From: a virus | DNA length: 39,179 nucleotides | Reading direction: 5' to 3' (one strand) | Virus record (IMG/VR): IMGVR_UViG_3300029479_000010 | In this document: positions 3,148-39,179 of the stretch, one piece after another | Layout of the letters: each line of letters opens with the position of its first letter | Position numbering within the stretch: position 1 is the stretch's first letter | Made by a program: the position numbers and the translations under genes | Notes under the pieces: generated by a model | What the model was told of the DNA's origin: nothing | Seen by the model: the letters and a program-made list of their open reading frames with translations, nothing else | Database searches by the model: none

Positions 3148-3424
3148 AATGTACCCACGCAAGATATATAAAAATGGGCTTGTAATTACTAAGGCACAGT
3201 TAGATAAAAACTACTGTGCTTTTTTAATTGCAGAAGTGCTACATGGGGCCACATGCTACTTAATGTTTCATAATAACACACTCTATGTCCTTGAACGCCC
3301 TTCAGGCACCTACATTACCCTTACAGACACCAAACCACCACATAGACAATTTCATATTTTCGTTGAAGACACTAGAGCTATTGAGAGTGCCTTACGCAAA
3401 GCCAGTTTCATTATATGCAAGTAG
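3134..3424 (+). CDS. Early hypothetical protein (96 aa from TTG 3134; alternative ATG at 3149)
   Basis: ORF. TTG 3134 follows an AAAGG SD. ATG 3149 lies 2 nt after the upstream stop. Confidence 0.5.
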   Translation: MSVYKMYPRKIYKNGLVITKAQLDKNYCAFLIAEVLHGATCYLMFHNNTLYVLERPSGTYITLTDTKPPHRQFHIFVEDTRAIESALRKASFIICK

Positions 3425-3451: not shown

Positions 3452-3577
3452 ATGTTCCCAATTGATAGAGACACCTTAGAAACATACATCGCCATAGGTA
3501 TGTTTCATGGGCTGTGTCTTGCTGTGTCTTTATTCATAGCATGGCTTTTATTTTGGATAATCGGAGGTTGCAAGTGA
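3452..3577 (+). CDS. 41-aa hydrophobic peptide (single predicted TM helix), translationally coupled to the RNAP gene
   Basis: ATG 3452 with GGAGG at 3439..3443 (8-nt spacer). Its TGA stop at 3575..3577 overlaps the RNAP ATG. Too short for the ORF track. Confidence 0.45.
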   Translation: MFPIDRDTLETYIAIGMFHGLCLAVSLFIAWLLFWIIGGCK

Positions 3578-6135
3578 TGAAAGATCTGGAACAAAGTCCG
3601 TTGTTTTTAGAAGAGCTTGAAATAGAGTACCAGTTTAAGCACCAAGCAGAAGAACAGCTTAAAAAGCATCTACAAGAGAAGACACGAGCAGGCAAGGCCA
3701 TAGAGACACCAATAGGCCGTGGCTTAATTGAATACCTTTATGATAACTTAGCGACTAACATTGAGGCATTCTTAAAGTATCAAGAAGAGCCAAAAGGAGG
3801 CGTTAAGGCTGCATACTATCCATTGGTCATGTGGTTGCTGGATATCTATAAAGACAATAGACAAGATTTAATTACCCTTTTGTCTTTAGCTACAATCACA
3901 GAAGCCGTCAATGCGGCACACACAACATTATCACTATCAAGCACCTGTCAGAATATACAGCAAGACGTCTTAGAAGAAGCACAGCTACAAGCTTTTTTAC
4001 AGGAGAACAAAGAAAAAGAGCTAAATACTTTGGTAGGGCTGTCAAGACGAAAAAGTAATTTTTATAGGCGTTATTTTATAAAAAATGTCATGAACCAGAC
4101 AGACTGGAAAGAAAAGCAATGGCCACTAAAAGAAACGGTGCTTTTTGGTGCAAAGCTATTAGAAATATGCATGCAAGGAACTGATTTATTTACCACTCAC
4201 TACAGGGTAAACTTTAGGGGCAAGGGCGTCGAGTGCATCGAGCCTACAGATGCTTTTCATAAGATATGGAACTCAAACACTTATTATTTATTATCAAGAG
4301 CCTATCAATCTTGTCCAATGATTATGACACCAGTACCATGGAAATCAGATTTAACAGGGGGCTATTGTGGCGAATTAAATGCTATTCATGGCTTTATTCG
4401 TACAGAGCGCTACCATACACAAGATAGACAAAACAATTTCTTTTTTAAGCAATATAAAGAGCAAGTAAAAGCCGCTGATTTAAGTAATGTCTTAAATGCT
4501 GTAAATAGCATTCAACAGACACCATGGATTATTAACTCTAAGGTGTTGCGGGTAGCAGAGCAGCTTGTTAATCAGGGGGGAGACATAGCAGGATTACCAC
4601 AGATGGAGCCCTTTTCAAAGCTACCAACGCTTGAAAACCCATCACAGGAAGAGTTAAAAAGACACAAGAAAGCAGCCAAACTTTTATACGAGAAAGAAGC
4701 CAGCAGGCGTGGAAAAGCCCTAAGAGTGCACATCAATTTACGCACAGCGCAGCGTTTTGAACAGTACGACAGGGTTTATTTTCCTCATAACATTGATTTT
4801 CGAGGGCGTATCTACCCAATACCGTCTTTTAGTCCACAGGGCGATGAACTGAATAAAGGATTACTGCTATTTGCAGAACCAGAACCACTGGAAAATGATG
4901 AAGACATCCAGTGGTTTTTTATTGCAGGTGCTGAATTTGCAGGAATAGACAAGGTGTCTTTTTCTGATTGTGTCTCTTGGGTAGAAGACAATAAAAGCAA
5001 CATTTTGGACACTGCTGCCCAACCATTAGACATGGTGGACTGGTGGGCTAACTTAGATGCCCCTTTTGAGTTTTTAGCGTGGTGTTTTGAATACCAGAAG
5101 CTCCAGAAGTACCTTGAAGAGCATAATGGTCACGCTAAAGGTTTCGTAACAGGCATACCGATTGCCTTTGATGGGACATGCAGTGGCTTACAGCACTTTT
5201 CTGCTATTTTAAGAGACCCTATTGGAGCCAAAGAGGTCAATTTAGCCCCTGGAGATAAACCAAATGACATCTATCAAACCGTAGCAAATAAAGTTAATGT
5301 TGTCTTACGGCAGGATGCCCAGACAGGCACGGGAGACACCACGGATGAAAAAACACAACAGATACGGTATGGCACCAAAACATTGGCACAAGGCTGGCTG
5401 TCTTTTAGAGTTACCAGAAAGGTAACAAAAAGACCCGTTATGACTCTTGCTTATGGTGCTAAACAGTTTGGTTTCAGAGACCAAATACTGGAAGACACAA
5501 TTATTTCTCATATAGGTGAGGGGCTATTTACGGCTGATAATGCTAACCAATATGCAGGATACATGGCCAAGCTTATTTGGAAAGCAGTACAAACCACGGT
5601 TGTTAAGGCTGTAGAAGGTATGGAATGGTTACAACAGGTGGCACGTATGGTCACTAAGAACGGTGAGGTCATACAGTGGACAACACCTATGGGCTTTATT
5701 GTTCAACAACCATACATGGTTTACAACGTTAAAACATACCAGATGAGGTTTTTACACATCACAAAACGTTTTTACGATATAGAAGTCACAGGTACAGTGG
5801 ATAGACGCAAGCAGTCACAAGCAATTGCACCCAATTTTATTCACAGTATGGATGCCAGCCATCTACAGATGACTGTAAACAGAGCAGCAGAAGCAAAAAT
5901 AACTAACTTTGCAATGATACACGACAGCTATGGTACAACCCTTGCAAAAGCGGGTTTACTGTTCCGTCTAATTCGAGAGTGCTTTGTAGAAATGTATACA
6001 ACCAATGATGTTTTAACAGCGTTTGAAAGAGACCTAAGCCCATTTATAGTGGGTAATCAAAAACTACCACCACAACCGACCAAAGATACTTTTGATATCA
6101 ATCAGGTAAAAGAAAGTTTATATGCTTTTCATTAA
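3577..6135 (+). CDS. Single-subunit DNA-directed RNA polymerase (T7 gene 1 homologue)
   Basis: 852 aa (T7 RNAP is 883). Contains DGTCSGLQH and HDSYGT motifs. ATG 3577 has GGAGG at 3563..3567. The track's 3514 GTG start lacks an RBS. Confidence 0.95.
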   Translation: MKDLEQSPLFLEELEIEYQFKHQAEEQLKKHLQEKTRAGKAIETPIGRGLIEYLYDNLATNIEAFLKYQEEPKGGVKAAYYPLVMWLLDIYKDNRQDLITLLSLATITEAVNAAHTTLSLSSTCQNIQQDVLEEAQLQAFLQENKEKELNTLVGLSRRKSNFYRRYFIKNVMNQTDWKEKQWPLKETVLFGAKLLEICMQGTDLFTTHYRVNFRGKGVECIEPTDAFHKIWNSNTYYLLSRAYQSCPMIMTPVPWKSDLTGGYCGELNAIHGFIRTERYHTQDRQNNFFFKQYKEQVKAADLSNVLNAVNSIQQTPWIINSKVLRVAEQLVNQGGDIAGLPQMEPFSKLPTLENPSQEELKRHKKAAKLLYEKEASRRGKALRVHINLRTAQRFEQYDRVYFPHNIDFRGRIYPIPSFSPQGDELNKGLLLFAEPEPLENDEDIQWFFIAGAEFAGIDKVSFSDCVSWVEDNKSNILDTAAQPLDMVDWWANLDAPFEFLAWCFEYQKLQKYLEEHNGHAKGFVTGIPIAFDGTCSGLQHFSAILRDPIGAKEVNLAPGDKPNDIYQTVANKVNVVLRQDAQTGTGDTTDEKTQQIRYGTKTLAQGWLSFRVTRKVTKRPVMTLAYGAKQFGFRDQILEDTIISHIGEGLFTADNANQYAGYMAKLIWKAVQTTVVKAVEGMEWLQQVARMVTKNGEVIQWTTPMGFIVQQPYMVYNVKTYQMRFLHITKRFYDIEVTGTVDRRKQSQAIAPNFIHSMDASHLQMTVNRAAEAKITNFAMIHDSYGTTLAKAGLLFRLIRECFVEMYTTNDVLTAFERDLSPFIVGNQKLPPQPTKDTFDINQVKESLYAFH

Positions 6136-6462: not shown

Positions 6463-6554
6463 TTTGCAATTCATTCCTAAATATAGAGGTGATTGTCGCA
6501 CTTATATACAAAGTGGTGATTGTCGCACTTATTAGAAGAAAGAGAAAGAAAAAC
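6463..6554 (+). promoter_or_regulatory. Repeated ~92-bp module, copy A. It holds two tandem phage-RNAP promoter-like sequences: ggtgattgtcgcacttatata (6488..6508) and ggtgattgtcgcacttattagaagaaaga (6515..6543), followed by a purine tract.
   Basis: Near-identical module at 36270..36363. The third promoter copy is at 6757..6784. GCACTTATTAGAAGA resembles SP6/T7-class promoters (CACTATAGAAGA). The position matches T7 phi1.1A/phi1.1B. Confidence 0.6.
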
Positions 6555-6756: not shown

Positions 6757-6784
6757 TTGATTGTCGCACTTATTAGAAGAAAGA
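6757..6784 (+). promoter_or_regulatory. Phage-RNAP promoter-like sequence ttgattgtcgcacttattagaagaaaga, upstream of the class II genes
   Basis: Third copy of the GATTGTCGCACTTATTAGAAGAAAGA core, 44 bp before the 6828 gene. Confidence 0.55.
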
Positions 6785-8153: not shown

Positions 8154-8365
8154 ACCTAAAAGAACTTCTTGACCGTGTGATTGATTTAGGGGGTTATATT
8201 AACCCAGAAGACCCTGTGTACTTTATTAATGAAAAGGGGAAGAACGTGCAGATACTAAGTTCTTTTAGTCTTTCAAATGGAGAGGGATTAGTTAGGAATG
8301 GCATATATTTTGTAGTAAAGGAAGTAGAGGATGTTACCAACACTAAAAATAAAGAAACTGTATGA
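8150..8365 (+). CDS. Hypothetical protein (71 aa)
   Basis: ORF with ATGA overlap to the upstream gene. Confidence 0.6.
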   Translation: MNLKELLDRVIDLGGYINPEDPVYFINEKGKNVQILSSFSLSNGEGLVRNGIYFVVKEVEDVTNTKNKETV

Positions 8366-8747
8366 GGGGGCTGTCATTCCCGAACATAAAAATAAACAGA
8401 CAGGATGGTTGCCACTGACTATTGATGAAGATGTAGTTATCTTTAGCCAGGACATATGCGAAGTTCATACAGGTATTGCTGTCCAGATACCAGCTGGATA
8501 CCATGGTGAAATTCACACTACGTCTTATTTGGGGCAGCATAGTATTAACCTGGCTAATAGTACAAAAATAATTGATGAAACATACATGGGTGAGGTGTGC
8601 CTACTGCTAAGGAATAGCGGGGCAGACGCCTGTCACCTGAAAAAGGGGCAAGTAATTGCTAAATTAGGTCTCATAAAAGACCCTGTTTTTAATATGACCG
8701 TTGTAGATACATTTAACAATGAAGAAGTTATGGAGGATGAAGATTAA
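8331..8747 (+). CDS. dut: dUTP diphosphatase (trimeric dUTPase family)
   Basis: 138 aa. Motifs HTGIAVQIPAGYHGEI and IIDETYMGEV fit dUTPase motifs II-IV. Confidence 0.75.
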   Translation: MLPTLKIKKLYEGAVIPEHKNKQTGWLPLTIDEDVVIFSQDICEVHTGIAVQIPAGYHGEIHTTSYLGQHSINLANSTKIIDETYMGEVCLLLRNSGADACHLKKGQVIAKLGLIKDPVFNMTVVDTFNNEEVMEDED

Positions 8748-8751
8748 CATT

Positions 8752-9363
8752 ATGGCAAAGACAGAATATACAAAAATTGTTACCAAAGCTGGAGAAGCTT
8801 TTTATGCACATTTAAGAGAACCTGAAACATATGAAGGCAAGGAATTGGGTTATAGCATCCAGCTGAAGCTGAATAAAGAAGATACCGATGAATTGATGGA
8901 CCAGATTGAAGCGGAACTGGAAAAAGCAAAATCAGAAATGAAGCTGAAGCCAGGCCGTAAGTGGTCTAAAGAACCCTTCATGGGCTTTAAAACAGACAAA
9001 GATGGCGATATTGTCTTTAAATTTAAGGTACCGTCTACAATTAAGACCCGTTCAGGAGAAGAACTGCCAAGAACTATTGGTGTCTTTGATGCTGCAGGAA
9101 ATCCGATTAAGGGAGACAATATTGGGAATGGTTCTACTGTAAAGGTTGCAGCAACATTGATACCGTTCCATGTTTCTAATGCAGTTAATGGTGTTTCTTT
9201 GCGGCTGAATGCTGTACAGGTGCTTAACCTTATTGAATATGGCCAGGGGGGTTCTGCTAAGTCCTATGGCTTTGGTGAAGAAGATGGTTATGTATGTGAG
9301 GAAAACACTGTGTCTGCGGACGAGAATGAAGATAACGTAGAATTGGTTGAAGGGGATTTTTAA
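8752..9363 (+). CDS. Single-stranded DNA-binding protein (T7 gp2.5 homologue)
   Basis: MAKTEY... N-terminus and acidic C-terminus ending ..EGDF (T7 gp2.5 ends ..DGDF). ATG 8752 lies in frame with the 8719 ORF. Confidence 0.8.
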   Translation: MAKTEYTKIVTKAGEAFYAHLREPETYEGKELGYSIQLKLNKEDTDELMDQIEAELEKAKSEMKLKPGRKWSKEPFMGFKTDKDGDIVFKFKVPSTIKTRSGEELPRTIGVFDAAGNPIKGDNIGNGSTVKVAATLIPFHVSNAVNGVSLRLNAVQVLNLIEYGQGGSAKSYGFGEEDGYVCEENTVSADENEDNVELVEGDF

Positions 9364-9366
9364 AAG

Positions 9367-9816
9367 GTGAGACGTTTTTCACGAAGAGGTGGATGGTCTA
9401 ATCATATCAACAGAGGATATAGGTCAGGGTTAGAAGATAACGTGGCCTTGCAGTTACAAGATGCTAAAATCAAAGTAGAGTATGAAAAATATACGATAGA
9501 TTATAGCATTCCAGAGCAAGTACACCATTATACACCTGACTTTGTGCTACCTAATGGTGTCATAGTGGAAACTAAAGGCATCTTTGATGTAGAAGACCGC
9601 AAGAAGCACATTTTAATCAAGCAGCAGCATCCTAATTTAGATATTCGGTTTGTCTTTTCATCAGCTGGAACAAAAATATACAAGGGCAGCCCCACGTCTT
9701 ATGCTGACTGGTGTAAGAAACATGGGTTCAAATATGCCACAAAATGGGTTCCAGAAGAGTGGTGGAAAGAAGATAAAAAAGATACAGGAGGCCTCATCAT
9801 GAAAAATAAAAAGTAA
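9367..9816 (+). CDS. Endonuclease I, Holliday-junction resolvase (T7 gp3 homologue)
   Basis: 149 aa, same as T7 gp3. Strong similarity, e.g. YTPDFVLPNGVIVETKG and IRFVFSSAGTKIYKGSPTSY. GTG start. Confidence 0.9.
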   Translation: MRRFSRRGGWSNHINRGYRSGLEDNVALQLQDAKIKVEYEKYTIDYSIPEQVHHYTPDFVLPNGVIVETKGIFDVEDRKKHILIKQQHPNLDIRFVFSSAGTKIYKGSPTSYADWCKKHGFKYATKWVPEEWWKEDKKDTGGLIMKNKK

Positions 9817-9821
9817 ATAAA

Positions 9822-10202
9822 ATGGGTAAATACGTAAAATATTTAAAACGAGAACAGACAGACTGTCTGATAATTGATAAAAGGGATGTAGAAGATAAGC
9901 CCTTACAAGAGATGTACTGTGAAATGAAAAGAAATGCACGGTTTGACACGGGCTACCACTTCATTATTCACAGGAATGGCAGTGTAGAAGAAGACCATGC
10001 TGCTGATGAGGTGGCGGGTATTCAGTTTAAGAAAAAAGCGACTGGCATTGCACTCTTAATTCCAACGGTTAGGGGGAAGATGACAGCTGCTCAAACAAAA
10101 GCCTTTAAGGCAATAGTAGCAAAATTAAAAGAGACCTATCAGGGGGTGACACAATCTTATCCCACATTTACTGATGGGTCTCTTTTAGCTATGGAGGGGT
10201 GA
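9822..10202 (+). CDS. gp3.5-like protein (N-acetylmuramoyl-L-alanine amidase/RNAP-inhibitor family) lacking the zinc-ligand residues. Probably non-catalytic.
   Basis: 126 aa. DTGYHFIIHRNGSVEE aligns with T7 lysozyme DVGYHFIIKRDGTVE. T7 His17 (FVHCSAT) is replaced (LIIDKRD), and the C-terminal AHHEVAPKACPSF zinc site is replaced by TQSYPTF. Confidence 0.65.
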   Translation: MGKYVKYLKREQTDCLIIDKRDVEDKPLQEMYCEMKRNARFDTGYHFIIHRNGSVEEDHAADEVAGIQFKKKATGIALLIPTVRGKMTAAQTKAFKAIVAKLKETYQGVTQSYPTFTDGSLLAMEG

Positions 10203-11821
10203 GAAAAATCGGTGAAATCATTAAAGCACATCTTCCTTGTCCCGATTGTGGGAGTCATGATGCTTTAGCCCTTTATGATGATGGGCACACTTATTGTTAT
10301 TCGTGTCATGCAACACACCATGAAACACAACCTAAAGAAAAGGGTGCTATGTATGACATAGAAGACTGGCCAATTGTTCCATTAAAAAAGCGGGGAATTA
10401 CCGAAAAGACATGCAGGTTATATTCGTATAAAGCAGGATTGCATAATGGACAACCCGTTCAGATAGCTTGTTATTTTAATGATAATGGTGTCTGTGTAGG
10501 GCAGAAGGTAAGGTATCCAGATAAGAAATTTACTACGCTGGGGAAGATAAGTAATCGTTTCTTTGGACAGCATTTATGGCCAGGAGGCGGGGGAAAAAAG
10601 CTGGTAGTGACAGAAGGTGAGATTGATTGCCTTACTGTGTCACAGCTGAATGGCAATAAGTATCCCGTTGTATCTATTCCTAATGGCGTCTCCTCTGCTA
10701 AGCGTGTCTTTAAAGAGAACATGGATTGGCTTAATTCCTTTGAACAGGTTATTGTCATGTTTGATATGGATGAACCAGGGCGAAAGGCCGTAAAGGATGT
10801 TGAGGGGCTCTTACAGCCTAATAAACTTTATGTAGCCACACTGCCCCTTAAAGATCCTAATGAGTGCCTTCTGGCTGGCAGAGGACAAGAAGTTATCAAA
10901 GCTATCTGGAATGCCAAAAAGTACACCCCAGACGGCATTGTGAATGGTGCCGACCTGTGGGAAGAAGTAAGTAAGCAGGAAGACACAGAACAGGGCTTTA
11001 TGTTTCCTTGGGACATCCCGCTGAATAAGATGACCTGTGGCTTGAGAAAAGGCGAATTAACTGTCTTAACAGCGGGAACAGGTGTAGGCAAAACAACGTT
11101 CGTGAGACAAGTTGCTTACGATTTGGGTGTCACAAAGGACCTTAAGGTAGGCTTATTGATGCTTGAAGAGAACGTGAAGCGCACCGCCCGTGGCTTGATG
11201 TCTATTGCAGCATCTAAGCGGTTATATATGAATAGGCAGGGTGTCTCTGAAGAAGAGTACAAGCAGGCCTTTGATAAGACATTGGGGACTGGACACTTTA
11301 TTCTATACGAGCATTTTGGGTCTTTAGATGGTGATAACCTGTTAAGCAAGATACGCTATATGGCTGTGGGAGAGCAGTGTGATTTTATTATTCTTGACCA
11401 CATCTCTATTGCTGTGTCTGGTTTGGAAGGCGACAATGAGCGAAAGCTTATTGACATCTTGATGACACAGTTACGTTCTTTAGCCGAAGAGACGGGAGTA
11501 GGTCTGATTGTAATTTCGCACCTGAAGCGTATTGAGGGTATGTCACATGAAGAGGGGGCGGCTACTTCTCTTTCACAGTTGCGGGGGTCTGGAGCTATTG
11601 CACAGCTGTCCGATACAGTCATTGGCTTAGAGAGAAATCAGCAGGCAGACGGGAAACAAAGAAATAGGGTTCGTATTCGTGTCTTAAAAAACCGCTGGAC
11701 AGGAGAGACAGGTATTGCGGGTTATCTCTTTTATAACAAGACTACAGACCACCTGGAAGAAACCAAACCCCTATCAGTAGAAGAAAGAGAGGAGGCAGAA
11801 GAGGATGATAGTCCTTTTTGA
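10199..11821 (+). CDS. DNA primase/helicase (T7 gp4 homologue)
   Basis: 540 aa. Zinc ribbon CPDCGS...CYSCH, TOPRIM region, Walker A GTGVGKTT, and a C-terminal acidic tail ending F. GTG start. An internal Met at 10349 (MYDIEDWP) may give a 4B-like helicase-only form. Confidence 0.92.
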   Translation: MRKIGEIIKAHLPCPDCGSHDALALYDDGHTYCYSCHATHHETQPKEKGAMYDIEDWPIVPLKKRGITEKTCRLYSYKAGLHNGQPVQIACYFNDNGVCVGQKVRYPDKKFTTLGKISNRFFGQHLWPGGGGKKLVVTEGEIDCLTVSQLNGNKYPVVSIPNGVSSAKRVFKENMDWLNSFEQVIVMFDMDEPGRKAVKDVEGLLQPNKLYVATLPLKDPNECLLAGRGQEVIKAIWNAKKYTPDGIVNGADLWEEVSKQEDTEQGFMFPWDIPLNKMTCGLRKGELTVLTAGTGVGKTTFVRQVAYDLGVTKDLKVGLLMLEENVKRTARGLMSIAASKRLYMNRQGVSEEEYKQAFDKTLGTGHFILYEHFGSLDGDNLLSKIRYMAVGEQCDFIILDHISIAVSGLEGDNERKLIDILMTQLRSLAEETGVGLIVISHLKRIEGMSHEEGAATSLSQLRGSGAIAQLSDTVIGLERNQQADGKQRNRVRIRVLKNRWTGETGIAGYLFYNKTTDHLEETKPLSVEEREEAEEDDSPF

Positions 11822-11827
11822 TTGACA

Positions 11828-13699
11828 ATGCTTTTATTTGATATTGAGAGCAACGGGCTTTTAGAGGATATGACAGTTATCCATTGTCTATGCATCTCTG
11901 ATGGGCATAAAAATATTATTCGTTATGGCCCAGACACCGTGGAAAGGGGCATTAAAAGGTTGCACAATGCCATTCGGGCTGGGGAGGGGGTATGTGGACA
12001 CAACATCATAAATTTTGATATTCCCGCTATTCAGAAGCTTTACCCCTGGTTCTCTATTGATAGGGCCCAGCGAAAGAATATTGTAGACACCTTGGTAATG
12101 GCACGTTTGATATATTCCAATATTGGTGAGTCTGATTATGGTCGATATCGGGCGGGTAAATTACCAGGAACATTGATTGGGTCTCATAAGCTGGCAGCAT
12201 GGGGTTATCGTTTAGGTGTCCTAAAAGGTACCTATGCGGAAGACACAGAGGATGCTTGGGCTGTCTTTAATGAAGAAATGCTGGACTACAACGAACAGGA
12301 TGTTGTTGTCACAGAATGTCTTTATGATAAGCTGTTGGAACAGAAGTATTCACAGACAGCTATAGAGCTTGAGCATAAGATAGCGTGGCTTATGGCACAA
12401 CAGGAACGCAATGGTTTTCCATTTAATGTACAAGAGGCTATAAAACTGGAAGGTGTCTTACGTGCCAGAGCAGCAGCACTGGATGAGGAAATACGAAAGA
12501 TGGTACCACCTATTCCTGATAAGGTCTTTATTCCTAAAAGGGATAATAAGACCCTGGGGTATGTGAAGGGTGTCCCTATTCAGCGTTATAAAGAGTTTAA
12601 TCCAAACAGCAGACAGCAAATTGAATATATAATCTGCAAACGTTATGGATATTTACCAGACAATGTGGAACTCTATGCGGAAGATGGGCGCCTTAAGATG
12701 GATGAGCAGACCTTTAAGTACCTAAAAGGTGACAAAAAAGCTCCTAAAGAAGTACAGGTGCTTGCCCCTTTATTAGAAGAACAGCTGATGATTTCAAAGC
12801 GTTTAGGGCAGCTGGCAGACGGCAGTCAGGCATGGTTGTCTCATGTGAAAGCTGATGGGCGCATTCATGGGCGTGTTAATCCTAATGGGGCAGTAACAGG
12901 AAGAGCGACACATTCGTCCCCCAATGTTGCCCAGGTGCCACATAATGGTGCTCCTTATGGCAAAGAATGTAGGGCGTTGTTTGGCGTACCAAAGGGGTGG
13001 ATACAGGCGGGGATAGACGCATGTGGTTTAGAGCTACGGTGTCTTTCCCACTTTTTATACCCCTATGATGGGGGTAAGTATGCTTATGAAGTTGTCCATG
13101 GGGATATTCATACGGCGAACCAGAAAGCAGCAGGTCTTGAAAAGAGAGATACGGCGAAAACATTTATTTATGCCTATTTGTATGGGGCTGGGGACGCTAA
13201 GATTGGTAAGATTGTTGGTGGTGACGCTACAGAAGGTAAGCGTCTGAAAAAGAAGTTTTTGGCAGCTACGCCCGCCATTAAGAACCTTAGAAAAGCTATT
13301 GAGGGTGTCTTAGTTAAAGAGACCTATCACGGCAAGATTACCAGATGGAAGCGTCATTATCTAAAAGGCTTAGATGGCCGACTATTGCATGTACGGTCTA
13401 TTCATTCTGCTTTAAATCTTCTGCTCCAAAGTGCGGGGGCACTGGTCTGTAAGTATTGGATAGTACGGACAGAAGAGCGACTGCTGGACAGGGGGCTGAA
13501 GCATGGTTGGGAAGGTGATTTTGCACTGATGGCTTGGATACATGATGAGCAGCAGGTGGCCTGCCGAACCAGACAAATAGCAGAGATAGTAGTACAAGAA
13601 GCACAGCTTGCGATGAGAGATACGCAGGCGTTTTTTAATTTTAGATGTCAGCTGGATACAGAGGGCATTATAGGTCATAACTGGGAGGAGTGTCATTAA
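11828..13699 (+). CDS. DNA polymerase (T7 gp5 homologue) lacking the thioredoxin-binding loop
   Basis: MLLFDIESNGLL matches the T7 N-terminus. Conserved Pol I motifs are present (RLLHVRSIHSALNLLLQSAGA, HDEQQV). It is ~80 aa shorter than T7 gp5 in the thumb-insert region. Confidence 0.92.
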   Translation: MLLFDIESNGLLEDMTVIHCLCISDGHKNIIRYGPDTVERGIKRLHNAIRAGEGVCGHNIINFDIPAIQKLYPWFSIDRAQRKNIVDTLVMARLIYSNIGESDYGRYRAGKLPGTLIGSHKLAAWGYRLGVLKGTYAEDTEDAWAVFNEEMLDYNEQDVVVTECLYDKLLEQKYSQTAIELEHKIAWLMAQQERNGFPFNVQEAIKLEGVLRARAAALDEEIRKMVPPIPDKVFIPKRDNKTLGYVKGVPIQRYKEFNPNSRQQIEYIICKRYGYLPDNVELYAEDGRLKMDEQTFKYLKGDKKAPKEVQVLAPLLEEQLMISKRLGQLADGSQAWLSHVKADGRIHGRVNPNGAVTGRATHSSPNVAQVPHNGAPYGKECRALFGVPKGWIQAGIDACGLELRCLSHFLYPYDGGKYAYEVVHGDIHTANQKAAGLEKRDTAKTFIYAYLYGAGDAKIGKIVGGDATEGKRLKKKFLAATPAIKNLRKAIEGVLVKETYHGKITRWKRHYLKGLDGRLLHVRSIHSALNLLLQSAGALVCKYWIVRTEERLLDRGLKHGWEGDFALMAWIHDEQQVACRTRQIAEIVVQEAQLAMRDTQAFFNFRCQLDTEGIIGHNWEECH

Positions 13700-14386: not shown

Positions 14387-15129
14387 TTTTTGATGCGGAT
14401 ATGCTTGTCTTTGAAAGCGCCTCCAGCGTAGAGACACCTGTCAACTGGGATGGAGACCTATGGACACTTCATGCTAATGCATCGGACGCAGAAGCCCAAT
14501 TTGAGGACAGGGTGTCCCTTATTGTGGACAAAGTGTTAAACCATATGGACTATGAGGGTGAATATGGTCTGATTATGTGTTTTTCAGATCCAACGGAGAA
14601 TTTCCGAAAAGAAGTTTTAAGTACCTACAAGGGCAACCGTGCAGGAAAGTTAAAGCCTGTTTGCTATGGGGCAGTACGTCAGTGGGTGGAAGACAGATAT
14701 GACTGTGTCTCTTATCCAACCCTGGAAGCGGATGATTGTGTGGGGCTCCTTGCTGATAAGCATAAGGGGCATGAAGTACACATTTCGGGCGATAAAGATT
14801 TCAAGACAATCCCTGGTGTCTTTTTTGATTTTCTACATGATGAGTGGTTTGAGATTTCAGAAGAACAGGCTTATAAAAATTTCTTAGCACAGGTCATGAT
14901 AGGAGATGCTGCCGATAACTATAAGGGTTGCCCTGGTATAGGACCAAAGACAGCAGATAAAGTCTTAGAAAAATATGGGGTAGGCTGGAAGACAGTTGTT
15001 GACCAATTTAAAAAGGCAGGGTTGTCTGAAGGAGAAGCACTCCAGCAAGCACGGGTGGCGCATATTCTAAACAAAGAGGAGGAGTATGACGTATGCAAGT
15101 ACAAGGTTACGTTGTGGAACCCGAACTAA
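14314..15129 (+). CDS. 5'-3' exonuclease (T7 gp6 homologue)
   Basis: LIFDADMLVFE matches T7 VMDGDWLVFQ. Contains the ISGDKDFKTIPG motif. TTG start at 14314 with a 73-nt overlap of the gp5.7-like gene. The start is uncertain. Confidence 0.85.
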   Translation: MDSNRKGAIPDVLWRRGWLFTLTLIFDADMLVFESASSVETPVNWDGDLWTLHANASDAEAQFEDRVSLIVDKVLNHMDYEGEYGLIMCFSDPTENFRKEVLSTYKGNRAGKLKPVCYGAVRQWVEDRYDCVSYPTLEADDCVGLLADKHKGHEVHISGDKDFKTIPGVFFDFLHDEWFEISEEQAYKNFLAQVMIGDAADNYKGCPGIGPKTADKVLEKYGVGWKTVVDQFKKAGLSEGEALQQARVAHILNKEEEYDVCKYKVTLWNPN

Positions 15130-15593
15130 CAGTCTACATGGTGAAGCCAAAAGATACTACATATATTTATCAGGCACTTCATGCTTTTACAGAATGTGCA
15201 ATGAAAAATAAATACTGTGCACAATTTTATGCTGAAAAGAGTGCTGAAGAGGCTATGAAGGTTATGGCAGTAATGCGGTGTCTGGCAGCATTCCTATATA
15301 AGGGAGACGTTGTGGGGTATGTGGGGTATACCATTGAGAACCCATGGTGGATGAGTCAAGAAGTTTTTAGAGAGCTTTTTGTACTTTGTGTCAGCCCAAG
15401 TTTTCACGGCTTTGGGCGTGTAGCTGCAAAGTGGATGGAAGAGACAGCAAAGTTAAATCATATACCACTGTTAGAGACAGCAGCTGCCCTCCCTGAAGAC
15501 CCCCAGCTGGCAAAGAACCTGTATATGAAGAAGCAGGGGTTTACTTTAGAATACCCCTCCTTTGTGAAGATTTTGAAAGAGGGTAAAAGATGA
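15093..15593 (+). CDS. GNAT-family N-acetyltransferase
   Basis: 166 aa. VSPSFHGFGRVAAKWMEETAK (acetyl-CoA-binding motif A-like) and C-terminal LYMKKQGFTLE. Strong GAGGAGGAG SD before ATG 15093. Absent from T7. Confidence 0.6.
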   Translation: MQVQGYVVEPELTVYMVKPKDTTYIYQALHAFTECAMKNKYCAQFYAEKSAEEAMKVMAVMRCLAAFLYKGDVVGYVGYTIENPWWMSQEVFRELFVLCVSPSFHGFGRVAAKWMEETAKLNHIPLLETAAALPEDPQLAKNLYMKKQGFTLEYPSFVKILKEGKR

Positions 15594-19752: not shown

Positions 19753-19827
19753 AGGCCAGTAGTTTAATGGAAAAATGGTGGTCTCCAAAACCATAAGATG
19801 TGGGTTCGAGTCCTACCTGGCCTGCCA
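19753..19827 (+). tRNA. tRNA-Trp (anticodon CCA)
   Basis: Manual fold. Acceptor stem aggccag/ctggcct, D-loop with GG, anticodon stem ggtgt-like/acca with loop cuCCAaa (U33, A37), T-arm gtggg-TTCGAGT-cctac, discriminator G, encoded CCA. 75 nt. Confidence 0.75.
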
Positions 19828-26249: not shown

Positions 26250-29200
26250 GTGCCAGGTGATATGAAACCCTATATGGATTTGGCGGAGATAGCTGCACAG
26301 GAATTTCAAAATAAGACAGGTAGATATCTTGACCCTAATCTGATATGGGCACAATGGTACCACGAGACAGGTGGCTTTACGTCTGAACTCTTCCGAACAG
26401 GAAACAATTTAGGGGGCTTTACAACCACTGAAGATATGGGGGATGACTGGAGGCAGCCTGATGGAGACCTCTGGTATAAGCCTTTTTCTTCCAGAGAAGA
26501 AGGGGCAAGATTTGCTGGTGCTTATCTGGCAAATTATGTCGAGAACGGTATTGCAGATGCAACAGACCCTGTATCTTATGCACAGGCATTAAAGAATGGT
26601 GGTTATTATGGGGCGTCTGTAGAAGAATATGCTTCAGGGTTAACCCGTGCTTTAGGTGTGTCTCCTGATTTTCAGGTGTTTGAAGAGGCGCACCCAATAG
26701 GGCCTTGGGGAGAGACACCCGCACCTATTCCTGAAGACAACCGCCATCCGTCTTACTTTGAAAGAACATGGGAAGAAACAAAAGATAAATTTATTGATAA
26801 TGCAGTCGATGATGGTGCATGGGCTGTCTTAAGAAACCTTTGGGCAAACATAAATGCATCAGGAGTGTCCCACTTTCTGGATACATATAATCCATCTCAA
26901 GAAGAAGTAGAGATGGTTAAAAGAGAACTGCCAGATACAGATACACAAGGCAACAAGATAGCGGGAGCGTTAGCGGCACAGGAATATGTCTTAACACATG
27001 CATCCAGTGCAGAAGCCTTACAAGAGCTCCTCTACATGAAGCAAGAGGACATGCAGAGGAGGGCACGTGTTTCCCAGATGGAATATGGGCTATCTACATT
27101 GGGCTCTGTGGTGGGGGCTTTATTTGACCCTGTAACTATTGTAGCTGCGGGTGTCTCTGGTGGTACAGCCTTACTGGCAAAAGCTGGTAAGGTAGCTGCT
27201 TTAACTAAAAAGATTTCACTTTTAAAGAAACAAATGCGGGTGTCTTCGGCTATTACAGGTATGGATAATTTTGCCATTCAGTGTGGCACGAAAGTTGCTT
27301 TAGGCTCCGCAGTGGCTACAACAAACCGTTGGGCAGCAAAGAATTATGGGGGCTGGGAACCAGACTATGCTTCTGCTGCTTTCCTTGGTGGGGCCATTGG
27401 GGGCGCTATAGGCCTTGCAGGACGTTTGCGTAAAGCAGGTGTCCGTGGTAAGAAGATTAACGCCCTTGAAGACACCATAGAGCAGACTAAAAGAACCATA
27501 GTGGCACAGGCAGAGGATTATGTCTCCCCTATGTCACATAAAGGGCAGGTAGTAGACTACCTGTCCAAAGTAAACCAGAGGCGGCTGGCAGATGGCAGCA
27601 AAGAAGCACAGGAACTCATGGATGCTAATAAGCTCTTTATTGTGTCCAGAGAGCATGCAGAGAAATTGGCTGCCTACAATGGTATTTCTTTAGACAAGAA
27701 AGCAGTGGCCTTTACTGATAAGGCATCAGGGGTGTCTGTTCTATTATCCGATAAGGTGACACCTAAGAACATTAAGGGCTTAGTGGCACATGAGGTTGGT
27801 GTACATCAGGGTTTTAAGGCCATCGTTAAGGATAAAAAGATGTATGACAATATCATGGATATTGTAAAACAAAAGATGCAGCGGTCCTCTAACAAGGCAT
27901 GGAGACAAGCAGCAAAGCAGGCTGATACGCCAGAAGAGGCATTAGCTTATTGGGCAGAACACACTTTTAATAATAAAGATAGTTTATGGAAATATCTTAA
28001 AAAGGCCCTTTATAAAAATGAAGAAGACTTGTCTGATGTTGCTTTGAAGAAGCTGGTTCAGCAGAGTCTCAAAACAACAGGGTTATCTGCACTGGTAAAG
28101 CATCAACAAGCTTATCAGGACGTTGTTCATCTCATAGAAAAAAGACGCTATAATAAAGGTGCTATAAAATCTTATAGAAACTGGGAAAAAGCAAAGCAAC
28201 AGACAAAAACTACCGATGAAGCAATACAATATTGGTTATCTCATTATTATGATGAGAATGATAGAGTATGGCAGAAGCTTAAACGCAGTTTAGACACCCA
28301 GGGCATGCAAATAAATGATGCGGATATAAGAGATATTCTTGTAAGAGGATATGCGTTTAAAAATCAGCCCGTTGCATCCTCGCTTTCGGATGGGTCTAAT
28401 ATAGTTATGGATATTCATTATTCCAAAGACAATATGCTAACCCCTGTTCATGAGACCTTTATGGATACTAAAGGGGCTGTGTCTAAAGAAAATAAACACT
28501 GGTACCTTGATTTCCTGGGTCTTCATTTTTCTCCAGGGGAATGGCTGGAGGCAGGCTGGCTTCCTGGCACTCTTTATGGTAAGCTGGCCTCTTCCCGTCT
28601 GCCACGATTACGAGAAGCAGCAAATATCCTTTTACACGATGCACAAATGCGTGGCCATGAACGTTTTGGTATGACACAATCAACAGAGGACATTAAACGG
28701 TTTATGCAAGACCGCTGGCTGTCTATGTATAATGATTTTATGGATGACCGTATCAAATATACGGTAAAAACGTATGGTCATGTGGGGGCATTAAGGAATA
28801 AGTATATCAATAAAGTCAATGAAGACATTGTTAAATGTTATAACTTACTTAATGAAAACTGTGCGGCCCTGGGTAAGGCGGACACCCTGGCTAAATACCC
28901 TGCGGATATTGTGTCTTTAGCAAGGCGCATGAAAGCCATTCGCAAAGATATGATGGAATTTGGGGCAGCGGAAGGTGAAAAGTTAGGTGGACGAAAAGGT
29001 ACAGGAGCATATCTTAGTCATGATGGTCTCTTTAATGATGATGAGTTTTACCGTATTGTAGACATGGATAAGATGTATGACTATGTAGGGACACATTATT
29101 ATGGTGGCGCTAAAGGCTGGGATAAATTTCAGGATATGCTTACGGATTATGCAAGACGCAATGCAAATAGAAAAGTTATTAGAGAACAGCTTGAACATAA

Positions 29201-31145
29201 AGCCCAACAAGACTTTGATATTGCACGCCTCCAATATAACAGTAAACCTCATGGGCCTAAAGACGTCCCACCTGTTAAGACAGACGTAACCGATGAAGCC
29301 GTGGATGCCTGGATAGAGGAAAATGCTAAGGATTGGGCCTTTGGTATTAAGGATAGGCACATGTCTGATATGGAATTTATGGATGGCGATGTGTCTACTT
29401 TTAGAGACAGCATGGCCTCCTTTAATCACCGTTTTCCTATGGATACATCCGCTGAAATGGATATTGGTAACGGTGTTACCTTCTGTTTTGACCGAGATAT
29501 GCGTGATTTTGATATAGACAAAATTATGCCACAAATGATAAACAGAATGTCTGGTGATGTTGCCCTTCATGCAACCTTTGGAGAAGGGGGCACAAAAGAC
29601 TTTCTGGATACCTGCGCCCAAGAATTAGAAAAGAGCAAACATATATTGGGCAAAGGGGGTGCAGAGAGACAGAAAGATGCATTAAGACGTTCCATCCAGA
29701 TGATAAGAGGTGTGGGTGATTATAATACAGCCGACATGAAGAATTGGAACTTGCTGTCCAATATGATACGTAAGCACTCTTATGCAAACGTAGGTGGTAA
29801 CATGACCTTTGCACAGACAGGTGAAATTGGGTCTATGGTTGCTTACAGCGGCTTTCATTCTTTGCTGTCTGGTATTCCTGTCTTTGGCAAAACACTGGCC
29901 AGAGGCTGGCGACACATGTCTAATGGAGAACTGGCGTCTATAGCCGAAGCAGCCGAAAAGCATCTAAAAGGAGAGTCTATTGCGACCAAAGCGTGGCATA
30001 TGAGCTCCTCTATGACTAACCGTGCCTTTAGCCAGACCATGGCACATAATGATGACGGTTCACGTACCTTATTGTCCACAGTGGCCGATAGTGCTTACAA
30101 ATGGACGCATAGAGAGTCCTTATTGACCTCTACTGTAAACCAGATGACAAAGCTGACAGACGCTATGGAACAGGAGTCCCGCATTAGTGCCATTACAGAC
30201 CTTATAGACTGGGCAAATGGTAAAACATTTAGTGCCTTTAGGAACCCCGTAAGCGTAAAGAAACTGAAAGCAGCAGGAGTGTCTGATACGGTTAGCATGA
30301 AACGGGATATAAAGAAATACCTGGATGTTCCACAAGACCAGGTAGCAGCCTCCATGGACAAATGGATGCAGGAGTCTCCTGATACGTTTACATTATGGAG
30401 ACAGCTGGTTAGAAATCAATCACTGCGGTCTATACAGCAGCAAACTATAGGAAACACTGGGTACCTTAAAGATGCTAATTGGTTTACTAAACTGTTCTTC
30501 CAATTTAAAGATTTCACGTTCAGAACAATAAATGGACAGATGATGAGAGCTCTACAGTCCCATGAAGTGGACGATGGGATGGCATTAATGTTCTCTATGG
30601 GCACAAATGCTATGACTTACTATGGCTTGACAGTAGCTAGAGGATACGCTATGTACCCCAATGATACAGCTAAACGGGGCGCCTTCTTTGATAGAAACCT
30701 TACCGCACAGCGCTTAGCTTTGGCGGGGTTGACAAGAGCATCCTTTATGTCTATTCTGTCTGTAGGCACCGATGTAGCGGAAATGACTACAGGCTTCCAG
30801 GGCTTTAGAACTACAGTAGATAATACCTACAAAAAACCATATTCGGATATGTCAGTAGGCGGAAAGGCTGGGAAGTTTATTGGGCAGGCACCTGCTGCGG
30901 GTGTTATCGACAAGACCACATATGGGACAATTGGTGCTTATAATCTGGCAACACACCAGGGAGACACAAGAGATTTTGATAATCTCATGCGGTCTTTGCC
31001 GTTAGGCTCCTGGTGGGCTATGGTAGGTGTGTCTTCACTAATAAAGGATAATCTGAATTTGAAGAAACCCAGACCTAAGAAGGTAGCCCCGAAGAAACGG
31101 GAACATAAACAGAAAGGTCTTTTAGAAAAGCTGACAGGAGGTTAA
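26250..31145 (+). CDS. Internal virion protein D (gp16 homologue, 1631 aa). Its N-terminal domain is glucosaminidase/FlgJ-like (PF01832-type) instead of a soluble lytic transglycosylase (SLT) domain.
   Basis: Size and position. N-terminal AQWYHETGGF..NNLGGF resembles the ALESGWG..NNLFGIK glucosaminidase signature. GTG start with TAAGGAGG SD. Confidence 0.85.
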   Translation: MPGDMKPYMDLAEIAAQEFQNKTGRYLDPNLIWAQWYHETGGFTSELFRTGNNLGGFTTTEDMGDDWRQPDGDLWYKPFSSREEGARFAGAYLANYVENGIADATDPVSYAQALKNGGYYGASVEEYASGLTRALGVSPDFQVFEEAHPIGPWGETPAPIPEDNRHPSYFERTWEETKDKFIDNAVDDGAWAVLRNLWANINASGVSHFLDTYNPSQEEVEMVKRELPDTDTQGNKIAGALAAQEYVLTHASSAEALQELLYMKQEDMQRRARVSQMEYGLSTLGSVVGALFDPVTIVAAGVSGGTALLAKAGKVAALTKKISLLKKQMRVSSAITGMDNFAIQCGTKVALGSAVATTNRWAAKNYGGWEPDYASAAFLGGAIGGAIGLAGRLRKAGVRGKKINALEDTIEQTKRTIVAQAEDYVSPMSHKGQVVDYLSKVNQRRLADGSKEAQELMDANKLFIVSREHAEKLAAYNGISLDKKAVAFTDKASGVSVLLSDKVTPKNIKGLVAHEVGVHQGFKAIVKDKKMYDNIMDIVKQKMQRSSNKAWRQAAKQADTPEEALAYWAEHTFNNKDSLWKYLKKALYKNEEDLSDVALKKLVQQSLKTTGLSALVKHQQAYQDVVHLIEKRRYNKGAIKSYRNWEKAKQQTKTTDEAIQYWLSHYYDENDRVWQKLKRSLDTQGMQINDADIRDILVRGYAFKNQPVASSLSDGSNIVMDIHYSKDNMLTPVHETFMDTKGAVSKENKHWYLDFLGLHFSPGEWLEAGWLPGTLYGKLASSRLPRLREAANILLHDAQMRGHERFGMTQSTEDIKRFMQDRWLSMYNDFMDDRIKYTVKTYGHVGALRNKYINKVNEDIVKCYNLLNENCAALGKADTLAKYPADIVSLARRMKAIRKDMMEFGAAEGEKLGGRKGTGAYLSHDGLFNDDEFYRIVDMDKMYDYVGTHYYGGAKGWDKFQDMLTDYARRNANRKVIREQLEHKAQQDFDIARLQYNSKPHGPKDVPPVKTDVTDEAVDAWIEENAKDWAFGIKDRHMSDMEFMDGDVSTFRDSMASFNHRFPMDTSAEMDIGNGVTFCFDRDMRDFDIDKIMPQMINRMSGDVALHATFGEGGTKDFLDTCAQELEKSKHILGKGGAERQKDALRRSIQMIRGVGDYNTADMKNWNLLSNMIRKHSYANVGGNMTFAQTGEIGSMVAYSGFHSLLSGIPVFGKTLARGWRHMSNGELASIAEAAEKHLKGESIATKAWHMSSSMTNRAFSQTMAHNDDGSRTLLSTVADSAYKWTHRESLLTSTVNQMTKLTDAMEQESRISAITDLIDWANGKTFSAFRNPVSVKKLKAAGVSDTVSMKRDIKKYLDVPQDQVAASMDKWMQESPDTFTLWRQLVRNQSLRSIQQQTIGNTGYLKDANWFTKLFFQFKDFTFRTINGQMMRALQSHEVDDGMALMFSMGTNAMTYYGLTVARGYAMYPNDTAKRGAFFDRNLTAQRLALAGLTRASFMSILSVGTDVAEMTTGFQGFRTTVDNTYKKPYSDMSVGGKAGKFIGQAPAAGVIDKTTYGTIGAYNLATHQGDTRDFDNLMRSLPLGSWWAMVGVSSLIKDNLNLKKPRPKKVAPKKREHKQKGLLEKLTGG

Positions 31146-33339: not shown

Positions 33340-33420
33340 ATGCGATATCACGATATGCTTACTTTTTGGTTTTTATTTTTATGCTTGCTTTTTGCATCCA
33401 GGTTGGTGGTGAAATTTTGA
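33340..33420 (+). CDS. 26-aa hydrophobic leader peptide ORF upstream of the holin
   Basis: ATG 33340 with AAGGAGG at 33328..33334 (5-nt spacer). Its TGA at 33418..33420 overlaps an in-frame TTG of the holin ORF at 33417. Confidence 0.4.
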   Translation: MRYHDMLTFWFLFLCLLFASRLVVKF

Positions 33421-33608
33421 GAACAGAAACATTTAGAAATGATGTTATAAAGGTTACGCCTTCAGCGGGTGTGACCTTTTCGACTTTTATGGGTTTTTCT
33501 TGGAACGAATGGGTCTACATACTGACCTGCATTTATACAGTAATTCAAATAGGTTGGCTGCTATACAAGATGTATAAAGCCATTAAAGAAGAAAGGAGAC
33601 ATGCATGA
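33417..33608 (+). CDS. Class II holin (T7 gp17.5 homologue)
   Basis: FSWNEWVYILTCIYTVIQIGWLLYKMYKAIKEE aligns with T7 gp17.5 LSLNEWFYVAAIAYTVVQIGAKVVDKMIDWKKA. The ORF spans 33366..33608. Alternative starts are TTG 33366 and ATG 33381. TTG 33417 gives a 64-aa product, like T7's 67. Confidence 0.6.
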   Translation: MRTETFRNDVIKVTPSAGVTFSTFMGFSWNEWVYILTCIYTVIQIGWLLYKMYKAIKEERRHA

Positions 33609-36269: not shown

Positions 36270-36363
36270 ATTTGCAATTCATTCCTAAATATAAAGGTGA
36301 TTGTCGCACTTATATACAAAGTGGTGATTGTCGCACTTATTAGAGAGAAGAGAAAGAAAAAAA
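36270..36363 (+). promoter_or_regulatory. Repeated ~92-bp module, copy B (phiOR-like position). Tandem phage promoter-like sequences at 36296..36316 and 36323..36351, then a purine tract.
   Basis: Three mismatches to 6463..6554. It is upstream of the two right-end + strand genes. Confidence 0.6.
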
Positions 36364-36804: not shown

Positions 36805-37326
36805 ATGTTTATTATTTCAGAGCAACGAAAGAAGATATTAATTATAATTATAGCTATTATTCTTTTCTTGAGTGGTTTATTCATTGGTTATAAACTGTTT
36901 TCACCACCTAAGGAAGAAGCTAATTATGGTAAGTTTGCAACATCCGATAAAGATATTATTACTGTGACCAATACGCACCAAGTACGTCCTAAAACGTCCT
37001 TAACGTCCCCAGATGTTACTATAAGACAGCCTGAAGTGGTTGTACAGCTGCCCAATAAGGGTATCGTTAAGGTACCACAGGGGCACACTTTGGACAATAA
37101 GACACAATTAGATTTAACACCCGTCATTAAGGAGATGGCAAGTGAAAGATATAAAAGGAATTGGGAAGTGGGGGCTGGTGTGGGGTATAATAAAGAACGA
37201 CATTCTGTTTATTATCCTATTGCTGTACAGCGCAATTTCAGCTATGATAGAGCTATTGAGGCGATAGTAGGGGTAGATAAGCATGGTGTCCAGAATGTGT
37301 CTGTAGTCTATAAAGTTAAGTTTTAA
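36805..37326 (+). CDS. Hypothetical envelope protein (173 aa). N-terminal signal-anchor/TM, beta-rich C-terminus ending in Phe.
   Basis: ORF with AGGAGG at 36785..36790. Hydrophobic segment ILIIIIAIILFLSGLFIG. C-terminal VVYKVKF. Confidence 0.6.
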   Translation: MFIISEQRKKILIIIIAIILFLSGLFIGYKLFSPPKEEANYGKFATSDKDIITVTNTHQVRPKTSLTSPDVTIRQPEVVVQLPNKGIVKVPQGHTLDNKTQLDLTPVIKEMASERYKRNWEVGAGVGYNKERHSVYYPIAVQRNFSYDRAIEAIVGVDKHGVQNVSVVYKVKF

Positions 37327-38607: not shown

Positions 38608-38904
38608 TATGGTCTCCTTTAGGGGGCACAAAAATAAAAATATGTAAAAATTGTGAAATGTGGGTTAATGAATTACAAAATATAAAAATACCCCCATATG
38701 TCCCTAATTGTACCATATGTCCCATATAGTAATAATAAAGTAAATCTGATACATATAGGCCCTAATGTGCCCAAGGTGTGACTATAAAGAAACCATAAAC
38801 AATCTATAACGTTTTACATATACCTATAGGGGTATATGGTATACCTGGTGTAGCCCATAATTCCTCATTTTGTTTCCTTTTTGTCAGGATTTATGGGCGT
38901 AAAA

Positions 38905-39003
38905 GGGGACGTAAAGGGACAATAAGGGGACAATAAGGGGACAATAAGGGGACAATAAGGGGACAATAAGGGGACAATAAGGGGACAATAAGGGGACATA
39001 ATG
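38905..39003. repeat. Tandem array of the 11-bp unit gggacaataag: 7 perfect copies at 38916..38992 plus degenerate flanking units
   Basis: Counted directly. It is oriented inversely (GGGACA) to the TGTCCC core of the 10-bp terminal-repeat units. Confidence 0.85.
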
Positions 39004-39080
39004 TTACCTGTTTGTTGTTTAAATGATAACGTTTTTGTTATCAATAAGGGACATATAGATATTTTATCTGTTAGATATCG

Positions 39081-39179
39081 AACAATATGTTCATCAATGT
39101 ACTTATTGTTTCCTAAATGTCCCTAAATGTCCCTAAATGTCCCTAAATGTCCCTAAATGTCCCTAAATGTCCCTAAATG
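39081..39179. repeat. Direct terminal repeat, right copy (identical to 1..99). The window ends within the 10-bp array.
   Basis: Exact match to the window start. Confidence 0.9.

Follow-up and report, generated by a model that had tools for sequence, protein, structure and literature searches.

T7 lysozyme (gp3.5) is a textbook moonlighting phage protein, and its inhibition of RNA polymerase (RNAP) underlies pLysS/LysY expression control. In T7, binding of lysozyme to RNAP moves transcription on to class III promoters at the expense of class II, and it aids replication and packaging. A virus genome from IMG/VR (record IMGVR_UViG_3300029479_000010, 39,179 nt, here called the window) raises the question of which job is left to such a protein when the residues that make it an enzyme are missing. 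At ~39.1 kb, the window represents a complete T7-like genome that encodes its own RNAP, and its gene 3.5 slot holds a short open reading frame (ORF), hereafter the target, whose product lacks the zinc ligands of T7 lysozyme. The reading that we favor with moderate confidence, judging from sequence, is that the target is a non-catalytic RNAP regulator.

Homology to T7 lysozyme and loss of the active site

The target was confirmed as a genuine T7 lysozyme homologue with the Amidase_2/peptidoglycan recognition protein (PGRP) fold. In a phmmer search of all PDB sequences, its sole significant matches are 1ARO chain L (T7 lysozyme with T7 RNAP) and 1LBA (T7 lysozyme), 1ARO_L being the best at E=5e-4. 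With a profile of its short relatives, described below, the match to 1ARO_L reaches E=9e-20, ten orders stronger than those to the next amidases (~1e-9). The AlphaFold2 model of the target (predicted local distance difference test score, pLDDT, 92.7; predicted template modeling score, pTM, 0.84) also has 1ARO_L (E=4.5e-9, template modeling score 0.76) and 1LBA as its best Foldseek matches in PDB, followed by phage amidases and PGRPs. A preliminary description of this locus, made from the sequence alone, was thus correct in recognizing the T7 lysozyme fold and its GYHFIIHRNGSVEE motif.

Identity between the target and T7 lysozyme is ~21–25%, depending on the alignment. PHROG 822 ('amidase') matches the target at 8.5e-11, and Pfam Amidase_2 (PF01510) scores 23.6 bits, under its gathering score of 26; the precomputed Pfam assignment is '-' for all database members of the short family. 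Apart from being the best match, T7 lysozyme shares with the target the slot flanked by genes 3 and 4, the N-terminal arm F-K-x-R-x-x-T, the GYH motif and the alpha/beta core. On the other hand, the target has 126 rather than 151 residues, carries three deletions, lacks the Zn ligands and Lys128, and leaves lysis to a separate late gene.

The losses were located in a MAFFT alignment of the target with gp3.5 of T7, KP32, Katbat and JELG-KS1. All three Zn ligands (His17, His122 and Cys130) and Lys128 are replaced or deleted. T7 His17 becomes Asp19 in an HCSAT loop that is 3 residues shorter, the His122 segment is absent by deletion, and T7 'KACPSF' reads 'QSYPTF', which turns Lys128 into Gln and Cys130 into Tyr. 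In addition, T7 His68 is replaced by Ile, and the C-terminal helix is missing. The earlier claims that Asp replaces His17 and that TQSYPT stands for the AHHEVAPKAC region are borne out by the alignments.

A larger alignment contained 53 sequences, 44 short and 9 canonical gp3.5. His17, His122, Lys128 and Cys130 are all present in 9/9 canonical sequences; among the 44 short ones, His17 is found in 4, Cys130 in 1, and His122 and Lys128 in 0. Neither an HCSAT nor an H...KACP motif occurs in any of the 35 retrieved short sequences. Other canonical-invariant residues are lost in the short family as well (Cys18, His36, His68, Asn73, Cys80 and Asn94), and the Tyr46 column holds Tyr in 31/44 and Phe in 10/44. 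Three deletions, of T7 residues 20–22, 85–90 and 121–139, are common to the whole family, and the match of its profile to T7 lysozyme ends at residue 121. The target keeps a C-terminal vestige (Pro131 and Phe133), a segment that most short members lack entirely.

The absence of the zinc site, as described earlier, also holds when these columns are checked: the 53-sequence alignment contains no alternative conserved His, Cys, Asp or Glu column able to rebuild a metal site. The loss of the Zn site, of catalytic Lys128 and of the C-terminal helix is predicted to make peptidoglycan hydrolysis impossible, and the target is very probably non-catalytic.

A short gp3.5 family

Is this state a quirk of one phage? 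When 1.84 billion representative proteins were searched with phmmer, 41 matches were obtained at E<1e-3, nearly all of 103–138 residues; a word-indexed protein search with the family profile gave 5 proteins. Copies 97–100% identical to the target lie on 14 IMG/VR contigs, and distant members (28–35% identity) on 6 further ones. Eight additional loci with short members were reached via RNAP similarity, and 1 more was found on a Logan contig. All these short members sit between endonuclease I and primase/helicase, with neighbors 52–73% identical to those of the window, so that the far more divergent target is a positionally fixed yet fast-evolving gene. As judged from the alignments, enzyme-dead gp3.5 was confirmed as common to the family and not confined to one phage, a point that the preliminary description had missed.

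Some searches did not extend the family. A contig scan with the target protein found no relative, and tblastn with the hidden Markov model (HMM) consensus against the deposited phages gave no match, probably because of low-complexity masking. With the target or a central family member as the query, tblastn against the deposited phages yielded nothing beyond canonical lysozymes of ~150 aa and partial matches. Among viral structure predictions (BFVD), a fold search then picked out a 113-aa metagenomic 'Lysozyme' (A0A8S5T7U2) and a 104-aa 'lysozyme' of Aeromonas phage PZL-Ah152. In the literature search, which included the JELG-KS1 comparative paper, no paper recognizing a zinc-less gp3.5 family was found.

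PHROG 822 'amidase' matches 35/36 short members, and therefore annotation pipelines will mislabel them. The family exposes a systematic annotation error in the PHROG-based and UniProt-style labels 'amidase', 'lysozyme' and 'endolysin', and at least one published enzybiotic study made a fusion on such a protein.

Three states of gp3.5 occur across T7-like phages: canonical, short and absent. Canonical gp3.5 occurs in other related T7-like genomes, namely L073, L116, the human-gut genome MT835557, Ralstonia RsoP1EGY and Bordetella BB8. Another RsoP1EGY gene (L042, NC_047946.1, 8451–8891), annotated 'endolysin; inhibits RNA polymerase', was considered as a gp3.5 paralogue and rejected, as its product matches the Pfam dATP/dGTP diphosphohydrolase N-terminal domain at 1.4e-25; its RefSeq annotation is probably wrong.

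The ratio of nonsynonymous to synonymous substitution rates (dN/dS) was estimated by the Nei-Gojobori method. For the target it is 0.01–0.15 in comparisons with 14 near-identical, conspecific metagenomic alleles and 0.17 with a relative at 73% identity. In a second lineage (L150–L155), dN/dS is 0.06–0.28 in 14 of the 15 pairs; the remaining pair is near-identical, with 6 differences, and gives 1.37. The target-type ORF remains intact at the same position in relatives with neighbors at the identities given above. The low dN/dS indicates strong purifying selection, and the gene therefore has a non-enzymatic job.

Loss of catalytic residues together with C-terminal truncation resembles decay, and the target could on that ground be taken for a functionless remnant of gene 3.5. 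The dN/dS values in both lineages exclude such a remnant. Moreover, each relative compared has the ORF uninterrupted and in synteny, over RNAP identities of 38–49%, and the protein has invariant residues and a confident fold model. The decay explanation is effectively refuted.

A truncated, zinc-less gp3.5 homologue without His17 also occupies the gene 3.5 slot of cultured Aeromonas phages and scores 60.9 bits with the HMM of the short family. This 104-aa 'lysozyme', 'Lys 17', is common to phages PZL-Ah152, PZL-Ah8, T7-Ah and vB_AhaP_PT2. It differs from the short family in that its gp3.5 homology is confined to the N-terminal ~68 residues. Because of this different architecture, and because the related JELG-KS1 has a canonical gp3.5, Lys 17 is probably an independent truncation. 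In PZL-Ah152 (L159, MW671054.1, 1495–2143), the truncated homologue is directly followed by a Peptidase_M15_4 gene, which looks like a better endolysin candidate than Lys 17.

When Lys 17 was expressed as a lysin in a 2025 study, it was ineffective both by itself and in a mixture with holin (PMC12817945). Viable counts were reportedly lowered only after pre-treatment with ethylenediaminetetraacetic acid (EDTA) or citric acid (PMC12817945). The study included no peptidoglycan hydrolysis assay and did not consider RNA polymerase (PMC12817945).

The lowered counts of EDTA- or citrate-treated cells would be expected if such proteins were still cell-wall hydrolases, working with different residues or independently of metal; the target would then be a second lysin beside the GH73 enzyme described below. 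Retention of Tyr46 and His47 (the GYHF motif) in the target also fits a hydrolase, as do the amidase and lysozyme labels. We consider this very unlikely, since the Zn ligands and Lys128 are gone, the whole family has deleted ~30 residues that form the C-terminal helix and the catalytic cleft, no substitute metal-site column is conserved, and Amidase_2 stays under threshold. In T7 lysozyme, either K128Y or deletion of 130–135 is enough to abolish activity, and Lys 17 itself was inactive both alone and with holin.

Lysis and proposed RNA polymerase control

If the target does not lyse the host, lysis has to come from elsewhere. In the window, a T7-family class II holin gene is directly followed by a dedicated endolysin gene of the GH73 N-acetylglucosaminidase family, which precedes a gp18-like small terminase gene (Table 1). 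The glucosaminidase endolysin that had been noted beside the holin is confirmed, with 83.3 bits against a Pfam cut-off of 30.2, and NCBIfam FlgJ/GsmA-type hydrolase domains also match. Its translation contains ALESGWG and YATDPDY, which we take to be the GH73 catalytic-Glu and YATD motifs, and no signal sequence is evident in it. The window yielded no further ORF of gp3.5-like or Amidase_2 type. In relatives, and likewise in a Dialister prophage (56% for the Dialister copy), the endolysin slot is taken by homologues of the GH73 protein with 54–58% identity.

Among the large-terminase matches listed, the late-cassette slot of the relatives holds GH73, Amidase_2 with intact ligands, GH25, Peptidase_M15_3 or Amidase_3. 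As these matches did not include the contigs in which a short gp3.5 had already been found, contigs joining both genome ends were reached from loci with terL and RNAP via their RNAPs. The late endolysin is GH73 on contigs 058335 and 037856 and Amidase_2 on contig 3300014039_000046, and gp3.5 is short on all three. Because varied late endolysins and a short gp3.5 occur on the same contigs, lysis in this clade belongs to a mobile late cassette. The lytic role was taken by non-homologous or distantly related late enzymes (non-orthologous displacement), after which gp3.5 lost one of the two functions it had. The interpretation in the preliminary description is supported in part, as gp3.5 is maintained without its zinc site beside a separate endolysin, but its term 'subfunctionalization' is loose, because lysis passed to unrelated enzymes and not to a duplicate.

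Two further genes of the window touch on lysis. A gp16-like internal virion protein (26250–31145, + strand, 1631 aa) has an N-terminal GH73 domain that scores 30.2 bits, exactly the Pfam cut-off; T7 gp16 has a lytic transglycosylase at that position. A recent duplication of the endolysin was considered for this domain and rejected. The gene at 36805–37326 (+ strand) encodes 173 aa, with a transmembrane segment in the N-terminal part and a beta-rich C-terminus that ends in VYKVKF. Its homologues lie within holin-endolysin cassettes (L062 and L067) and after terL in Negativicutes prophages, and it is a candidate spanin-like, outer-membrane-disrupting lysis protein; no Rz/Rz1 pair was seen.

We regard the target as a pseudo-enzyme of T7-type lysozyme descent that keeps the Amidase_2/PGRP core and the N-terminal arm. 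It would be expressed together with the DNA-metabolism (class II) genes and would most likely perform only the second job of T7 lysozyme, binding the phage single-subunit RNAP away from the active site and damping initiation. Lysis would be done from the other genome end by the holin and the GH73 endolysin. We infer RNAP binding and inhibition because this is the second known function of T7 lysozyme, the ancestral type, and because the N-terminal arm is conserved.

The sole invariant residues of the 44 short sequences are Arg8 and Thr11 (T7 numbering), both in the N-terminal arm (44/44). The arm, which comprises T7 residues 2–8 and those after them and which T7 lysozyme requires for RNAP inhibition, is full length in the family, with Phe5 in 70% and Lys6 in 55%, and reads V-K-Y-L-K-R-E-Q-T in the target. 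Gly40, Asp43, Gly45, His47, Gly54, Glu57, Arg60 and Gln99 are also strongly conserved, most of them in common with canonical gp3.5. When T7 positions 3–60 are compared with 61–120, identity of the target to T7 is 33% vs 15%, and the information content is 2.18 vs 1.81 bits.

In T7 lysozyme, residues 2–52 form the RNA polymerase interaction domain, and inhibition is zinc-independent (PMC5445346). The inhibitory strength of Pseudomonas phage lysozymes is set by the N-terminal tail (PMC10138996). T7 lysozyme K128Y has no amidase activity and inhibits T7 RNAP fully (PMC5732464), and the T7 mutant AFK136, with codons 130–135 deleted, has lost lysis and kept RNAP binding (PMC2680503). The short family has lost what K128Y and AFK136 prove RNAP control can do without, and has kept what is needed.

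LysY (K128Y) and AFK136 are proposed as the functional model for the role of the natural protein, as they lost muralytic activity through the same active-site elements and retained RNAP binding or inhibition. They are laboratory mutants with one lesion each, whereas the natural family lost the entire site plus ~25 residues and diverged to <30% identity.

Several observations weigh against RNAP control. The window RNAP is 34% identical to T7 RNAP overall, but only 1/17 of the lysozyme-contact positions of T7 RNAP (in 307, 309–312, 720–736 and 844–855) is identical in it, and indels occur at 2/3 of the contact segments. Thus RNAP binding is suggested by ancestry and the conservation pattern, the contact residues being unconserved; if the lysozyme-RNAP interface is kept, it would have co-evolved beyond recognition. 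Furthermore, at L084 (10214–11562) and L119 (20950–21599), endonuclease I is directly followed by primase/helicase without any gp3.5, so the regulator is dispensable in some lineages. The retained Tyr46 and His47 and the effect of Lys 17 on pre-treated cells, mentioned above, count on the same side.

The unconserved contacts could also mean that the target is non-catalytic but bound to another partner, such as replisome proteins, host RNAP, a host defence or a cell-wall precursor ligand, the fold serving as a scaffold as in receptor PGRPs. Family identity of 28–36%, against 56–73% for the neighbors, is expected of a protein tracking a changing partner or host target, and the gene lies in a dense replication operon and overlaps the primase/helicase start. 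Non-catalytic PGRPs (PGRP-SA, PGRP-LC and PGRP-LE), members of the same fold superfamily by the fold matches, have likewise lost zinc ligands and are pure binders.

However, the receptor PGRPs keep their peptidoglycan groove and are secreted or membrane-bound. In the target, the cleft-lining segments are deleted, which argues against muropeptide binding, and its 126 residues contain no signal sequence or transmembrane segment; it would be cytoplasmic, with the polymerase as its proposed ligand. In addition, the N-terminal arm is the most conserved part and, in T7 lysozyme, is specific to RNAP inhibition, and parsimony favors the ancestor's second function. Another partner is possible but, on balance, unlikely, and regulation of the phage RNAP remains the reading that we prefer.

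With RNAP regulation as its role, the target family may be regarded as a natural, ancient counterpart of LysY and as a phage parallel to the non-catalytic PGRPs. A long-lived natural lineage that keeps the gene without the enzyme activity is an evolutionary experiment, one that points to the non-lytic role as the selected one in this clade. It is also a source of non-toxic, naturally amidase-free candidate inhibitors that could be paired with orthogonal phage RNAPs in synthetic biology. A wider view, which we hold to be quite doubtful, is that the short proteins, a large family without a name, are natural 'LysY-like' pseudo-enzymes, dedicated non-enzymatic governors of single-subunit RNAPs that would have arisen at least twice by active-site decay. 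In temperate, integrase-bearing Negativicutes phages, they might also silence or throttle the RNAP during lysogeny or in the lysis-lysogeny decision.

Candidate promoters of the phage RNAP were found as repeats. The 20-mer TGATTGTCGCACTTATTAGA occurs three times exactly (6517–6536, 6758–6777 and 36325–36344; 0 expected by chance), with two variants at 6483–6516 and 36291–36324. The copies lie directly downstream of the RNAP gene and downstream of terL, a placement like that of T7 phi1.1A/B and phiOR.

Genome setting and host

The target ORF lies within a densely packed, class II-like gene block that runs from dUTPase to DNA polymerase (8331–13699; Table 1). Its stop codon overlaps the GTG start of primase/helicase (10199). 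In T7, KP32, Katbat and JELG-KS1, too, gp3.5 is flanked by endonuclease I (gene 3) and primase/helicase (gene 4), and the same flanking pair is present in all related loci compared.

Table 1. Positions of the target and of the other main features in the window
Feature	Position	Strand	Basis and remarks
T7-type single-subunit RNA polymerase, 873 aa; proposed partner	3514..6135	+	PHROG 414, E=4e-238
dUTPase	8331-8747	+	precedes SSB
gp2.5-like single-stranded DNA-binding protein (SSB)	8719-9363		
Endonuclease I (gp3 homologue); upstream synteny anchor	9367..9816	+	PHROG 945, E=3.8e-54
Target ORF, short zinc-less gp3.5 homologue, 126 aa	9822..10202	+	ATG start; homology, fold and residue census
Primase/helicase (gp4 homologue); downstream synteny anchor	10199..11821	+	PHROG 239, E=3e-197
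DNA polymerase	11822-13699		
T7-family class II holin	33366..33608	+	Pfam PF10746, E=3.2e-15
Dedicated endolysin, GH73 N-acetylglucosaminidase family, 157 aa	33605..34078	+	Pfam PF01832, E=3e-23
Tyrosine integrase, right genome end	37507-38631	-	PF00589, 2.3e-27

No close DNA relative of the window was found among 50,697 deposited phage genomes. Relatives of its large terminase with 64–74% identity (L125–L137) lie in contigs of chromosomal scale from Dialister, Phascolarctobacterium, Veillonella, Pectinatus and Megasphaera. Together with the integrase, these relatives in Negativicutes contigs place the window in a clade of temperate T7-like Negativicutes phages, largely from human samples. Little is known of temperate T7-like phages that infect diderm Firmicutes of the human microbiome, and the clade adds to it.

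At the prophage loci examined, no tRNA adjoins the prophage. In two Veillonella contigs (L129 and L131; Veillonella sp. CHU740 and CHU110, respectively), terL is followed by the RNAP gene within ~5 kb, in the same circular order as in the window, so integration did not take place between these two genes.

The window ends overlap exactly by 99 nt (1–99 = 39081–39179); this is a direct terminal repeat or else reflects the assembly of a circular or concatemeric genome. Short tandem arrays, CCCTAAATGT x8 and AATAAGGGGAC x8, flank the overlap (31–113 and 38890–39009). In the early region, a 33-nt element with a hairpin and a T-run, AGAGACTGTAAAAGAAAAACTACAGTCTCTTTT, is present in identical copies at 1178–1210 and 1552–1584, with a diverged third copy at 3192–3224; these elements are possible early terminators or processing sites.

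A GNAT acetyltransferase-like ORF (15093–15593, + strand; PF00583, weak at 9e-05) follows the exonuclease gene, and both this ORF and the dUTPase are outside the T7 gene set. A tRNA-Trp (CCA) gene is located at 19753–19827 (+ strand), with the major capsid gene on one side and the tail tube gene on the other.

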